Source: Dictyostelium discoideum (lineage: Eukaryota). From it: a stretch of 64,000 bases of DNA. Below, in pieces: positions 46,229-58,592 of the stretch; positions within the stretch are counted from its first letter, which is position 1, and each line of letters starts with the position of its first letter. Position numbers and translations under genes: made by a program. Location: NCBI GenBank assembly GCA_000004695.1, contig CM000152.2:5472001-5536000 (forward strand), given 5' to 3'. The notes below the pieces were generated by a model. That model did no database searches. It was not told where the DNA came from and was given only the letters and a program-made list of their open reading frames with translations.

Positions 46229-46299
46229 GGGAGATTAGTTAAGTGGTATAATGCTACCTTTGGGTGGTAGCGTCCTGAGTTCGATTCTCGGATCTCCCC
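46229..46299 (+). tRNA. tRNA-Pro (anticodon UGG)
   Basis: GGGAGATTAGTTAAGTGGTATAATGCTACCTTTGGGTGGTAGCGTCCTGAGTTCGATTCTCGGATCTCCCC folds as a cloverleaf. The acceptor pairs GGGAGAT/ATCTCCC. The anticodon stem is CTACC/GGTAG, the loop is TTTGGGT with anticodon TGG, and the T-loop is TTCGATT. Confidence 0.9.
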
Positions 46300-47053: not shown

Positions 47054-47124
47054 GGGGAGATCCGAGAATCGAACTCAGGACGCTACCACCCAAAGGTAGC
47101 ATTATACCACTTAACTAATCTCCC
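47054..47124 (-). tRNA. tRNA-Pro (anticodon UGG), second copy, inverted
   Basis: Exact reverse complement of the 46229 tRNA sequence. Confidence 0.9.
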
Positions 47125-53042: not shown

Positions 53043-54594
53043 ATGGTAGCTCAAAGACATTATTATCCAAATTTAAATGATTTACCAAAAGAAATATTAG
53101 TAATTATATTCACACATGTTTTCAATTTATTAAAAAAAGATAAATGTAGAAATCTTAATTCAAAATTTTTTCAAAATGTTTTCATCAGTAAATCAATTGG
53201 TAATTCACTTTTAAATAGTACAGAGTTTTGGATAATATTGATATCTTCTTATATATTTAAAGATATTCTTATTTTTACATCAAATAAATTGGATAGAAAT
53301 GTTTATAATTTAGTTTATTATTGTGCGAGTCAATGTAAAATTAGAGATTATTTTAATAGAAATATTAAAGGTCAAAGACTTCAAACTGTATGTATATGAA
53401 TATAAATAATGAAAAAAAAATAAAATAAAATAAAATAAAATAAAATTTTAATTATATAATAATTATATATAGAAAATTCAAAGTAGTAAATATATGAATT
53501 TAAAAACAGCAGTTTGTTCAATACCATTTGAGAGTAGTTTTATAGTTGGTGGATTGGGTACTAATAAATATCCATTTTTAAGAGCATTCAATTATAAAGG
53601 TGAAGAACAAATCAATTATTTACAAATGAATAGAGTTGGTGCTTATGAAAATAAACCAATTGAATCAATTTCATGTAGGAATAAAGTATTGGCATTTAGT
53701 GTGTTGGGTAGTGATATTATATCAATTTGTAAGACCAATGACTTGAATGAAGATAAATGTGGTTATTTACAATATGAGACTATTAGAACCTCATGCACAG
53801 GTGAAAGAAGTAGGGTAAAGTTAAGTCCGGCCGACGAGAATAAATTAGCTATTGGTGGTAGTGATGGGTCGGTGCATATCTATGATTTGAATCGTATACT
53901 TTCAAACACTGATGACGATGACCAATACGAAGGCAATGAATACATTACAGTCATATCGGAGTGGGGTTTCATGAATAACAAGCTACCAGTTTGGGACTCT
54001 TGTTTCACAAATGATGGTAGAGGTTTATTCGTAGTGGGCGAGTCAGTTCTCAATTGTAGCGATTACTATAAGAATACCGGTTTCGTTAGATACTGGGACA
54101 CCAGACAAGATCCGAATAAAATGGTATGGCAATTAAGGGAAGGTATTGAAGTTGGTGGTATCTCACAATCCCAAGATTCAAATTGTATAGCCTACGTAAT
54201 GAGAGGTGGTTTGGTTAGAGTATTCGATCTACGTTCTCCAAATAATCCACTGGCATTATTCACACCAGAGTCTTCATTAAACTATAACTTTACTTTAAAA
54301 TCTCCATTCAATAGAGACGCTATAGCTTGGATACCCGGTGGATGTGATAATATAGTCTCCTCTTTTTACAATGAAATCAATGTATGGTCAATGGCTGAAG
54401 GTGAAGATACTTGTACCATCATGGTTGATAAATATAGAACCCAAGATAATAATCATAATCAATTAGATATAACTGATGATGGTTTATTACTTTGTTCCAA
54501 TGATACAATTTATTCTCTAAATGATATCAGTGATAAATCAATCATTGATTATTTAGATAATCAAAAAAAAGAAAAAGAAATTGAAAGTGATTAA
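53043..54594 (+). CDS. F-box protein with C-terminal WD40/beta-propeller-like region
   Basis: Model is join(53043..53387, 53473..54594) with a GTATGT donor and ...tatatag acceptor, phase 0. The F-box is LNDLPKEILVIIFTHVFNLL. Repeated ...GGSDGSVHIYDL / ...GGLVRVFDLRS WD-like strands are present. Confidence 0.6.
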
Positions 54595-54719: not shown

Positions 54720-56464
54720 TCAAAATAAATCAGATTTAAAATCAATTTCCCAAGTGTTTGGACCTAATTCCATTTCTTTATCAGTTAATAAACATTGATC
54801 TAATTTTTTAATGATTGTATCTTTATCAAAACCATTTGATTGTAAACCAACGATTGACAATTCAATCTTTCTATCTTGATATTTAAATAATTTAATTTCT
54901 CTTTCAATATTTTCTTTAATTGCTGGATTCCATTCACTTTCTTTCATTGTTGACCAAAATGGACGTTTATTACCAATCATTTCTTTACCTTCAAGCTTTT
55001 TTTAAAAAAAATTATTAATAATTTATTTATTATTATTTATTTATTATTATTTATTTAAATTATTATTTTTAAAATATTTAAATATTTACAATTTCAAAAT
55101 TATATTTATTTTTCATATCATTTGCTAACCAAATTAAACCAGTTGTTAATAAAACACCTTTAAAATTTGTTGTTAAATTTAATTGATTATTTTCATTCTT
55201 TTCAATTGTATCATATAATAATTTATGTAAACGAATTGGATGAAATGGTTTTCTTTGATAATAATTTACAATTGAAATACCAGTTTCAGTATCAGTTTCA
55301 CTCTCTAATTTGTAATCTCTAATGGTTACAACATAGTTAAAGAGTAATTGAAAATTTGGTATCTTACAATAACTAGTTTCAATAACTAATGATGATGATA
55401 TTAAATTTAATAATTTTCCAATAAATTCTAATTTTGATTTTTCAATTTTATCAATTTTATTTAAAATTATAATATTTGAAATTGATATCTATTAAAATAT
55501 ATATATATATATTAGTTTTATATACATGTATATTACTATTTAATAATAGTGATAATAATAAATAATAATAATAATACAAACTTGTTCTAAAATTAAAGTT
55601 GAAACTAATTTATCTGATGATTTAACTAACTCATCAATATCAGCATCTAAATCTTTAAGATCATCAATTTCATCATTTTGATCATCACAACATTCTTTTT
55701 GACAACCTTTACCACATTCTAATTTTGTATCTTTTTGTTTTGTACTACTACTACAAACACCTTTTTCATCACAACATGATGAATGATCATGTTTTTCTAA
55801 TTGTTGTTTTTCAAATTTCTCACTTAATTCTTTTTCATAATTTTTATCATCAATATCTTGATTATCAATTTCTTCACCTTCTTCTTCTTCACCATCTTCT
55901 TCATTTGACATAATTTTCATGATATCTCCAACTTTTTTATCAGATTTTAAATCATCTAATAATGATTCAGCATCTAATATACAAACTACATTTATTAATT
56001 TTACACTCTAAAAATAAAATAAAATTGTTGTGTGTTAATTATAATAATTGTTGTTGTTGTTATTGTTGTTTATTAATTTTATTTTATAAATTGATACATA
56101 CTGAAATGAAATCACCTAAAGAACCTTCCATTTCATCAGCACATGATAAAACTTCTAATAAAAATGTACTTTCAAATGGATGAGAAAAGAAGATAACTTT
56201 ATCAAATTTACCTTTTTTTAATATAAAATCACCAATAAATTCTTCTTCCATAACTGTAACTATTGACCCATTTTGTAATTCGATACATGTATCTTCAACC
56301 AATGTTTTATAACCATTAGATTCATCCAATACTGATTGAGGTAATGTTCCAACTCCATCAAATAAATATGCAACCTTTAATCCTAAATTATCTTTTCTAA
56401 TACTATGATAAAGTGATGCTTTACCAGTATTAATAAATCCAATCACTACAATTGCATCTGTCAT
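54720..56464 (-). CDS. CobW/COBW-domain (ZNG1/CBWD-like) G3E-family GTPase homolog with degenerate motifs
   Basis: Four-exon model join(56464..56102, 56007..55582, 55488..55090, 54995..54720). Donors are GTATGT, GTTTGT (weak), GTAAAT, all phase 0. The N-terminus is AIVVIGFINTGKASL. The G4 motif is ILNKIDKIE. A His/Cys/Asp-rich insert reads EKHDHSSCCDEKGVC...CGKGCQKECCDD. A CobW_C-like end reads RKIELSIVGLQSNGFDKDTIIKKLDQCLL. The GCxCC position reads ELQNGSIVTV. Confidence 0.6.
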
Positions 56465-56629: not shown

Positions 56630-57766
56630 TTATTTTGTAGATGAAGATTTTGTAAATTTTAAAGCATCTAAAAAATTTGACATTGAAATATTATTTATAT
56701 TAATATCATTTCTTAATGCTAATAAAGCAGTTTCTTTACAAAGATTATTAATATCTGCACCATTGAAACCTTGAGTTAATTCTGATAATTGAATGAAATC
56801 TACACTTTCATCCAATGGCATTGATTTAGTTATTTTTTTGAAAATATCTAAACGTGCTTCTTTATTTGGATTTGGTATTTCAATATGATAATCAAATCTA
56901 CCAGGTCTAAGTATTGATGGATCTAATAAATCAATACGAGTTGTTGCTGCTAATACAATTGATTGATTGCTATTATTATTATTGTTGTTGTTACCACTAC
57001 CACCACCACCATAAATACCATCAATTTCAGTTAAAAGACATGATAATAAACGATCAGATGATTGTTCAGAAGAATCATCAAAACCTCTTAATTTTGCTAA
57101 AACTTCCACTTGATCCAAGAATAAAATACAAGGTGAACTTTCACGTAAAGTTTTGAATAATTTTGAAAGGTTTTTTTCACTTGCTCCAACCACTGGATCA
57201 ATGATATCAGTTGATGAGATTGATATGAAATTTATATTTGGCGATGATGATGCAATTGCACGAGCAATTAAACTTTTACCATTTCCAGGTGGTCCATATA
57301 ATAATACTCCACTTGGCGATTTAATACCTAACCTATCCAATACACTCTTATTCAACATTGGTGTTAATATTGATGATTTGATTTTTTCAATTATTTCATC
57401 TAATCCACCAATTTCATTGAACCCATTACCATTACCATTACCACCACCATCTCCATAACCAATGGTTGGTAATTTATATTGATTTAATATCGAGGGTTTT
57501 ACAAGCTCAAATGCTTTATTAAAATCGAATTTTTCAATTAAATTATAATCATGACAATCATTTCTTTTAATATTCACTAAAATAGCTTCTTTACATAAAC
57601 TATTTAAATCTGAACCTACATAACCATGTGTACATTCTCCCAAATATTCTGATAACTCTTTATAATGTATTTCATTATTTTTAAAATTTGGAAATTCTAA
57701 ATTAAAAAAAAAAATTAGTAAATTTGGTTTTAAAAAAAAAAATATAAAATTTAAAAAAAAAAATAA

Positions 57767-57799
<33 letters not shown>

Positions 57800-58592
57800 T
57801 ACTTTTAAATAATAAATATAAAATTTCTTTTCTATCATTTGGTGAAGGTATTGGTAAATTTAAAACTGAATCAAATTTTCCAATTGAAAAGAACGCTGTA
57901 TCTATAGATTCAATTCTTGATGTTACACCAATTACAAATACTGATCTTTTCTTACTATTATTTTCTAATAATGTTAAAAAATTTGAAACTACTCTTTGTT
58001 CAATATCTATAATTTTAATTTAAAACAATTAGAATTTTATTTATTTATTTATTATTTATTATTTATTATTTACATACACCCTAATGAATCATTTCTAATT
58101 TGTGAAATTGAATCAATCTCTTCAAAAACTAAAACAAATGGTGATTGACTACTTGCTGTATTGAATATACTTTCAATTAATTTTTCAGTATCTCCATCAT
58201 CTTTATTTTTTAAAAAAAAAGAGAGAGAGGGGTTAGTTTGAGGGAAAAATAAAAAAAAAATTAAAAAAAAAGAGTTTTAAAATTAATTTATTTTTACCTT
58301 TTTGAAATAGGTTTGATGAATTTATAATTTTATAATTTATTGATAATTTTGTTAAAATTGATTTTATTAATAATGATTTACCAATTCCTGATCTTCCATT
58401 TATTAGTATATTACATGGGTAGAATTGATCATCATTACCATCATCATTAATAATAATATTTCCAATTATATCCAATCCATCTAAATTAAATAAATCATTA
58501 ATTTTATCAACTATAAATGAAATTGTATTACCCAATCCTCCTACATTTTCATTGATCGATTTCTTTATATCTTCTAATTTTATGTTTTTCAT
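56630..58592 (-). CDS. AAA+ ATPase with two tandem AAA domains (CDC48/NVL/PEX-like)
   Basis: Four-exon model join(58592..58298, 58200..58078, 58006..57803, 57696..56630), with phase-1 GT donors and an intron carrying (TACA)n. D1 has INGRSGIGKS and VLVFEEIDSI. D2 has GPPGNGKSLIARAIA (Walker A), ILFLDQVEVL (Walker B with Q where the catalytic E is expected) and ...LLDPSILRPGRFDYHIEIPNP (arginine finger). Confidence 0.65.

Follow-up and report, generated by a model that had tools for sequence, protein, structure and literature searches.

The window analysed here, a stretch of 64,000 nucleotides of the Dictyostelium discoideum genome (contig CM000152.2, positions 5,472,001 to 5,536,000; GC content ~22%), carries on its minus strand, at 54720-56464, the gene DDB_G0282213. 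Its 487-amino-acid product is a two-domain COG0523 homolog (G3E G-domain followed by a CobW_C domain), for which homology and fold are established, and the reading that we hold to be probable is that this protein is a pseudo-GTPase of a single-copy dictyostelid COG0523 clade, serving as a hydrolysis-independent adaptor or metal-binding protein. A previous inspection of the same letters (hereafter the sequence-only reading) had proposed a divergent, possibly non-hydrolysing paralog of the zinc-metallochaperone GTPase family, and both the motif losses and the homology described below support such a paralog, which is predicted not to hydrolyse GTP.

Loss of GTPase and metal-site motifs

The diagnostic blocks were read in a single alignment that sets 13 clade members beside 11 canonical proteins. 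The Walker A remnant GFINTGKAS (residues 9-17; 56414..56440, minus strand, as for all features of this gene) stands for the canonical GFLGAGKTT and keeps GxxxxGK, with the Mg-coordinating Ser/Thr replaced by Ala16, and the switch I remnant YLFDGVGTLPQ (residues 33-43; 56336..56368) occupies the place of the canonical VIVNDMSEVNID. The CxCC-equivalent segment ELQNGSIVTV (residues 62-71; 56252..56281) lies in register with the canonical LSNGCICCTL, all three Cys thiolate ligands being gone, while in the Walker B/switch II equivalent VIFFSHPFES (residues 90-99; 56168..56197; canonical LLIESTGISEP) the Glu has become Phe and the Gly has become Pro. In the C-terminal domain (CTD), the RxKG equivalent is LTTG (residues 377-380 in FKGVLLTTGLIWLA; 55138..55149), the canonical sequence being WKGVLRSKGFFWLA (RSKG), so that the arginine finger and the catalytic lysine are lost. 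The sequence-only reading of the first and third of these segments, as a Walker A without the P-loop Ser/Thr and as a CxCC position without cysteines, agrees with the alignment and with the motif searches given below, but it had missed the losses at switch I, at the Walker B ExxG and at the CTD RxKG. The retained elements are GxxxxGK, the G4 motif NKID (residues 273-276; 55450..55461; N273 and K274 invariant in eight aligned orthologs), PFHPxR, DRKxE and the C-terminal CLLTDxE..GPxxW. Before the CTD, the PETEEY position reads TDTETGIS versus the canonical ETEEYGIS, where the alignment is recognisable and the sequence degenerate.

According to a 2026 preprint, CxCC, located between switch I and Walker B, is 'family-defining and invariant' and gives three thiolates to Zn in ZigA and MigC, and RxKG, on CTD strand beta-2, is the sole absolutely conserved CTD sequence of the superfamily, its arginine finger and catalytic lysine both being essential to GTP hydrolysis in ZigA and MigC. 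In addition, the MigC Walker B mutant E99A shows GTPase activity at background, and the preprint gives PETEEY before the CTD as the signature of cluster 1 of the sequence similarity network (SSN).

Mis-alignment or a splice error, which the sequence-only reading had kept as possible causes of these losses, are excluded by the conserved introns, the RefSeq identity, the multiple alignment and a three-frame search. Indeed, regular-expression searches found no C.CC and no GxxxxGK[ST] in the 487-residue protein, and no C.CC, GxxxxGK[ST] or in-frame R.KG occurred in any of the three forward frames when the complete gene, introns included, was scanned with 150 bp on either side. Re-splicing cannot restore Walker A, switch I, CxCC or Walker B, because all four positions are within exon 1 (56102..56464; residues 1-121; the N-terminal half of the G-domain), which is one continuous open reading frame (ORF), and no corrected splice model restoring CxCC and GK[ST] exists at the locus.

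The four-exon structure put forward by the sequence-only reading was recovered by the assembly of the coding sequence (CDS), by RefSeq identity and by intron positions conserved in four species. All introns are GT-AG and every exon is in phase 0; the CDS of 1464 nt comprises 487 codons and a stop, and its translation equals XP_640289.1 / UniProt Q54SU6 of strain AX4 residue for residue, the RefSeq name being 'hypothetical protein DDB_G0282213'. Exon 2 (55582..56007; residues 122-263) encodes the strand VVCILDA, the clade-specific insert and the helix toward LILEQ, exon 3 (55090..55488; residues 264-396) the G4 motif, the linker and the start of the CobW_C-like domain, and exon 4 (54720..54995; residues 397-487 and the stop) the remainder of that domain, including YQDRKIE and CLLTDKEMELGPNTW; the family motif LILEQISISNIIILNKID is reconstituted across the exon 2/3 junction. 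The orthologous CDSs of D. citrinum, D. firmibasis and D. dimigraforme were rebuilt from their genomic loci. These share all three intron positions with D. discoideum, the intron-2 donor GTTTGT is identical in all four species, and synteny is kept among the four, with an AAA+ ATPase gene upstream and a WD40 propeller gene convergent downstream. Since intron positions, donor and synteny are shared and the RefSeq protein is identical, the gene model is sound.

A constrained dictyostelid clade of COG0523 homologs

The COBW architecture proposed by the sequence-only reading stood as regards the two domains and NKxD, which hhalign and Foldseek recover, whereas both Pfam domains remain below threshold, with cobW (PF02492) at 19.7 bits versus a gathering threshold of 20.7 and CobW_C (PF07683) at 17.6 bits versus 22, in the correct domain order. 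Curated score thresholds do not by themselves establish DDB_G0282213 as a COG0523 member. Single-sequence phmmer against the PDB gave no COBW match, just chance SAR1 matches (E~0.8), and a profile of eight orthologs reached YjiA only at E 0.3. These two approaches being too weak, homology was established by hhalign, an exhaustive profile search and a fold search. With hhalign, the clade profile aligned end to end with a canonical COG0523 protein of Balamuthia (99.9% probability, E 1.3e-35, 405 columns, score 260), over the full length with Myxococcus ZigA (E 6.5e-29, score 210), and with a Pichia COBW protein (E 5.4e-28). The exhaustive hmmsearch of 1.84 billion representatives yielded 2378 COBW relatives at E<=1e-3, and the 35 tabulated non-clade relatives have intact canonical motifs wherever the region is covered, some of these sequences being fragments. 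For the fold, a first AlphaFold2 (AF2) model from eight sequences, with a predicted local distance difference test (pLDDT) score of 54, was set aside and replaced by a model from a 46-sequence alignment (pLDDT 74.9; 80-95 in the folded parts). Foldseek with the latter ranked YjiA (4ixm/1nij) on top, at E 9.5e-12 and 1e-10 with both domains covered, then HypB (E 1e-3) and, more weakly, other SIMIBI NTPases.

Orthologs were found in 13 dictyostelid lineages covering all four classical dictyostelid groups, the sources being Cavenderia fasciculata; Heterostelium album and Acytostelium subglobosum; Tieghemostelium lacteum; Polysphondylium violaceum, D. purpureum and the D. discoideum complex; and, further, Synstelium and one other EukProt species. 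In the profile search, E-values jumped from 1e-96 to 1e-37 between this clade and all other COBW proteins. In a neighbour-joining tree, the clade is monophyletic (100/100 bootstrap) on a very long stem adjoining the canonical Balamuthia protein, with one copy per species and an internal topology that matches the taxonomic groups.

The motif losses are graded over the clade. The Walker B Glu and Gly and the R and K of RxKG are lost in 13/13 members and switch I in every full-length member, while loss of the P-loop Ser/Thr is confined to the D. discoideum complex (GKAS / GKVS) and Cavenderia (GKVT in C. fasciculata), GKS being kept elsewhere and most members having GKS[ST]. At the CxCC position, Heterostelium album PPL_08514 has CVCC and the Acytostelium subglobosum protein SICC, both with a GKST Walker A, and Tieghemostelium lacteum DLAC_03244 and the further EukProt species have SVCC with GKSS; the motif is lost in P. 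violaceum and D. purpureum, which keep GKSS, as well as in C. fasciculata and the D. discoideum complex. Cavenderia is classified in Acytosteliales, the same order as the Cys-retaining Acytosteliaceae, and Tieghemostelium, with its SVCC, in Raperosteliaceae, a separate family from Dictyosteliaceae; therefore, complete CxCC loss occurred at least twice, and so did loss of the P-loop Ser/Thr. From the aligned motifs we infer that Walker B, switch I and RxKG were lost in the common ancestor, followed by CxCC and then by the P-loop hydroxyl. Such a decay pattern would be expected for residues serving only a catalytic cycle that was already dead.

NKxD was seen in all clade members except P0011, a mis-modelled EukProt entry ('gene3988-4989_t', 1687 aa), and the sole change at the G4 Asp in the clade is NKIE in the D. 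purpureum protein P0005. Note that P0011 extends ~1150 residues beyond its COBW-like part, this extension being unrelated, Ser/Thr/Asn-rich and with a hydrophobic segment at its end, and that its NKxD region is missing (------TDLI); most likely it is a fused or mis-spliced gene model. As predicted, the D. purpureum protein is moreover longer at the N-terminus by 16 residues (MNFEIFFRQRFYLGIM), and its start may be mis-called.

Ratios of non-synonymous to synonymous substitution rates (dN/dS, Nei-Gojobori method, NG86) among four close Dictyostelium species were 0.11-0.19 overall. By segment, residues 1-145, the half of the G-domain that is depleted in motifs, gave 0.03-0.18, the NKxD part 0.05-0.16 and the CTD 0.08-0.14, and with a dS of 0.2-0.4 among these species the test has power. 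As judged from these ratios, DDB_G0282213 is under purifying selection, the motif-depleted part of the G-domain included. In addition, the ORF is intact in 13 lineages.

The strand-to-helix segment from VxxDA to EQI sets the clade apart from its canonical relatives. It measures 107-252 aa in the clade, with 6-20 Cys and 2-7 CC pairs, versus mostly 37-40 residues in canonical proteins (70 in Balamuthia), all with 0-1 Cys. In D. discoideum, the clade-specific insert (residues 156-249; 55624..55905) is predicted by AF2 to be disordered and consists of an acidic tract followed by a Cys-rich module, whose core (residues 199-228; 55687..55776) reads CCDEKGVC ... C-GKG-C-QKE-CC. Among the eight aligned orthologs, K216, C219, G222 and C223 are invariant. 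Most insert cysteines belong to repeated tri-Cys units of the form CCx2-4Gx0-2C, found in 10/13 clade members, with CC pairs in 13/13; the D. discoideum insert has one such unit in addition to C-GKG-C-QKE-CC, and those of P. violaceum and Synstelium have five each. In the sequences, Cys-pair content is conserved across the clade and repeat architecture is not. Metal binding by the insert would be consistent with this content, and each tri-Cys unit, like CxCC, can offer three thiolates. The sequence-only reading had described a His/Cys/Asp-rich insert; the composition is instead Cys/Asp/Glu/Lys-rich, with just 2 His. As for the C-termini, several canonical eukaryotic relatives are His-rich there, and the clade has an acidic tail or none.

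Two kinds of variation of the insert and its surroundings were also recorded. The T. lacteum insert (P0012) has a different repeat, SDCC[DK][DEP]K x4, which is followed by a His-Asp run (CCDHDHDHDHD). Within D. discoideum, alleles of other isolates are 99% identical; the acidic tract at residues 154-166 (window ~55880-55910) is SNEEDGEEEEGEE in AX4 and SNEEEEEEVDGEE in isolate P0001, and a one-residue indel occurs among strains at residue 355 (LLYDTIE versus LLYDDTIE). This polymorphism of tract and indel fits a fast-evolving, low-complexity insert.

Proposed role and alternative explanations

GTP hydrolysis by DDB_G0282213 would be impossible, and Mg-nucleotide binding by the D. discoideum protein would probably be weak or nil, because Ala stands at the Mg-coordinating Walker A position and the Walker B acid is missing. 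Without hydrolysis, there would be no GTP-driven metal hand-off cycle of the kind proper to ZigA/ZNG1, and a hydrolysis-independent adaptor or metal-binding role becomes the most likely one. A partner would be bound by the conserved surfaces of the CTD and the G-domain, and the thiolate site for metal (Zn, perhaps also Cu or Cd) may have passed from CxCC, a rigid loop, to the flexible insert with its tri-Cys units. Several points weigh against this reading. With a dN/dS of 0.23-0.31, the insert changes more quickly than the remaining protein, the number of its tri-Cys repeats ranges from 1 to 5 depending on the species, and metal binding by it is deduced from composition alone. GxxxxGK and NKxD are strictly retained, and nucleotide binding could still matter. 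The alignment given to AF2 included canonical homologs, and the fold match therefore depends in part on sequence homology. Finally, a literature search on DDB_G0282213, DDB_G0274527, DDB_G0281589 and Dictyostelium with COG0523 or 'COBW domain-containing protein' returned nothing relevant.

The strongest competitor, which we regard as unlikely but worth serious attention, is a structural scaffold or a regulator that acts independently of metal. It could, for instance, be a decoy for the two canonical COBW paralogs or for their clients, or a partner of either, with the insert as a redox-sensitive or simply tolerated low-complexity loop and not a metal site. Such a scaffold agrees with the CTD being the most conserved region, both by invariant columns and by an omega of 0.08-0.14, a domain considered to determine the partners of COG0523 proteins, and with an insert that is variable in length and repeat number and less constrained; moreover, D. 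discoideum proteins often have low-complexity inserts. It fits poorly, however, with the non-random Cys pattern of the insert (CC pairs in all 13 members, the tri-Cys unit in ten, four residues invariant in the eight aligned orthologs), and the gain of a thiolate module where canonical relatives have 0-1 Cys, together with the loss of a thiolate site, is unlikely to be a coincidence. A more specific proposal carries the pseudo-GTPase reading further: a ZigA-like zinc chaperone driven by GTP would have become, in dictyostelids, a thiolate buffer or donor of metal that works without hydrolysis, in which the tri-Cys units replace CxCC and the conserved CTD still docks the client. We hold this conversion to be doubtful. 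If it is true, DDB_G0282213 supplies part of the cytosolic Zn/Cu/Cd buffering, and living species preserve the stages of the conversion (CVCC to SxCC to none; GKS to GKA or GKV). Classical metallothionein activity has been reported as undetected in Dictyostelium, which leaves room for a thiolate buffer, although this link is speculative.

The retained GxxxxGK and NKxD could be taken to mean that the protein is still a working GTPase/NTPase metallochaperone with non-canonical catalytic residues, where, for example, Ser17 beside Ala16 or the FES/EEE acids could act as substitutes, with the insert cysteines as metal site. Both motifs show no variation among the eight aligned orthologs, a Ser/Thr lies next to the substituted P-loop residue in every species concerned (GKAS, GKVS, GKVT), and the G-domain is strongly constrained as judged by dN/dS. 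Nevertheless, we consider a working enzyme very improbable, with five elements gone together in D. discoideum (Walker A Ser/Thr, switch I, CxCC, Walker B E..G and RxKG), single Walker B or RxKG mutations already abolishing activity in ZigA and MigC, and successive independent losses forming the pattern that a dead active site would leave once constraint is relaxed. A pseudogene in decay, or an artefact of the gene model by which the real motifs were spliced out, might explain the sub-threshold Pfam scores, the 'hypothetical protein' annotation and the weak-looking intron-2 donor, but it is hardly conceivable. The pseudogene is ruled out by the overall dN/dS of 0.11-0.19, alongside the intact ORF, the single copy per species and the synteny in four close species; as to the artefact, introns and donor are identical in four species, the RefSeq protein matches and no motif is hidden in any frame. 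Both readings were rejected on these grounds.

Genomic context, significance and relation to known COG0523 proteins

The sequence-only reading had also pointed to a canonical COBW gene elsewhere in the genome as a matter to check, and two exist: the D. discoideum paralogs Q869Q0/DDB_G0274527 and Q54TS3/DDB_G0281589, listed in the node table of a published SSN study, have both Pfam domains and cover the ordinary functions. The Swiss-Prot ZNG1 of the species is Q869Q0/DDB_G0274527, hence DDB_G0282213 is not its ZNG1 ortholog. Among the SSN entries listed, T. lacteum, P. violaceum and H. album each have the clade member and two other COBW entries, while D. discoideum and D. purpureum each have two other COBW entries, Q54SU6 and DICPUDRAFT_99164 not being among those listed; this apparent absence from an InterPro-based table is suggestive rather than certain. 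In that study, sequences without CxCC or GTPase motifs were removed before tree building. When canonical dictyostelid COBW proteins were sought in our own homology matches, a Balamuthia query gave mostly bacterial ZigA and none (0/10) of the ten most N/K/I-rich canonical representatives was dictyostelid; the SSN table decided the matter.

No second COBW-like gene was found within the 64-kb window. The upstream AAA+ ATPase gene (window 56630-57838, minus strand, continuing upstream; PF00004 and AAA_lid_3, with a Gly/Asn run in its ORF) lies on the same strand and ends ~165 bp upstream of the COBW-like start codon; its orthologs, of 561-577 aa with two AAA domains, neighbour the COBW-like gene in three other Dictyostelium species. 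The WD40/beta-propeller gene (window 53494-54594, plus strand) is convergent, with the two stop codons ~125 bp apart, an arrangement also present in sister species; its Pfam matches are all under the family cut-offs, the best being a THOC3 propeller (E 8e-9). Further away, a tRNA-Pro(UGG) pair is found in inverted orientation at 46229-46299 (plus strand) and 47054-47124 (minus strand), ~750 bp apart. As regards transcripts, the 126-aa ORF P0162, from the Logan assemblies of public reads, corresponds to exon 1 with intron 1 read-through (...GDFISVCINL*), i.e., an unspliced genomic ORF that is uninformative on expression. P0006 was considered as expression evidence and discarded: its uninterrupted ORF is on short JGI contigs with the convergent neighbour and no poly(A), which look genomic, and nothing was inferred from it.

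Pseudoenzyme members are common in enzyme families. The present case is not categorically new in this respect, and one degenerate bacterial COG0523-like lineage has already been described. Among the papers that a literature search listed, none combined 'pseudoGTPase' with COG0523, CobW or G3E. The novelty lies in a eukaryotic clade, dictyostelid-wide and under purifying selection, that departs from both of the 'invariant' signatures, CxCC and RxKG, by which COG0523 is currently defined, and from the Walker B and switch I rules as well. New also are the graded intermediate states of motif loss across species, with a compensatory-looking Cys-repeat insertion, and the fact that the clade is unannotated and was not retrieved by published surveys, which discard or never retrieve sequences without these signatures. 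This ordered natural series of losses could help to relate each motif to the parts of the chaperone cycle that need it, and to learn how a COG0523 scaffold acts when no GTP is hydrolysed. Being genetically tractable and in use for studies of zinc and copper handling in phagocytes, D. discoideum would allow a direct knockout test. DDB_G0282213 and DICPUDRAFT_99164, now 'hypothetical protein', should become degenerate COG0523/ZigA-like pseudo-GTPases.

Among known subfamilies, profile scores support ZigA-like proteins as nearest to the clade, and not ZNG1/CBWD. The CobW/ZNG1 assignment of the sequence-only reading was right at the level of the COG0523 superfamily, but the ZNG1 label is imprecise (hhalign scores of 260 and 210 for ZigA-like proteins versus 84 for ZNG1). 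With ZNG1 (P0287), the clade has the superfamily and the G-domain fold in common, and the profile alignment (E 6.7e-11, 218 columns, 97% probability) covers the G-domain and not the CTD. The flexible N-terminal extension of ZNG1 binds the zinc-finger region of MetAP1, and Zn transfer from CxCC to MetAP1 has been proposed from structural models; DDB_G0282213 lacks this CxCC as well as the extension, starting with MTDAIVVIGF 5 residues before strand 1. The ZNG1 extension reportedly contains a CPELVPIE-type motif, and no P.LVP (PELVP-like) motif occurs in the DDB_G0282213 protein.

The best NCBIfam model is ZigA (NF038288; 91.8 bits, E 4e-26), far below its equivalog cut-off of 600 bits. Bacterial ZigA and the ZigA-like protein of Balamuthia mandrillaris (KAL6067990.1) share with the clade the two-domain architecture, the full-length profile alignment and the elements CLLTDxE..GPxxW, PFHPxR, DR[RK]xE and the helix-strand EQ[IV]xFA..[IV]LNKxD. 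In contrast to them, DDB_G0282213 has lost the Walker A Ser/Thr, switch I, CxCC, Walker B and RxKG and has a degenerate PETEEY, and the clade has a tri-Cys insert of ~100-200 aa versus 37-70 aa and no His-rich C-tail like that of several canonical eukaryotic relatives. Note that the Balamuthia protein (P0015), a canonical ZigA-like member, bears the source name 'Family inorganic phosphate transporter', an apparent mis-annotation. E. coli YjiA (PDB 1NIJ, 4IXM) is the top structural match over both domains at just 12% identity; unlike DDB_G0282213, it is an active GTPase with CxCC and without the insert. To our knowledge, it is the only solved COG0523 structure.

In MigC (A. baumannii) and CBP1/ZNG3 (Chlamydomonas), the output is the regulation or binding of a partner and not simple cofactor loading. 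MigC inhibits MurD and requires both CxCC and GTPase activity for its function, and CBP1/ZNG3 represses CCM1; unlike the dictyostelid clade, both keep the GTPase motifs, and MigC also keeps CxCC. The only described precedent that we found for a COG0523 relative with degenerate motifs is mycobacterial Rv0106/Mrf, which is COG0523-like, without GTPase motifs and with CxSC in place of CxCC, and predicted to lack GTPase activity (Haas 2009). By analogy, Mrf indicates that such proteins can be zinc-linked adaptors rather than chaperone enzymes. It too is conserved and degenerate in its GTPase motifs, its own CxCC being incomplete, and the MRF model (NF047431, ribosome hibernation factor-recruiting GTPase MRF) is second in NCBIfam, with 45.2 bits (E 6e-12) versus a cut-off of 375 bits, so that DDB_G0282213 is not a member. 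Mrf is bacterial, Zur-regulated and without the tri-Cys insert, and its degeneration is independent; the likeness is therefore one of analogy and not of membership.

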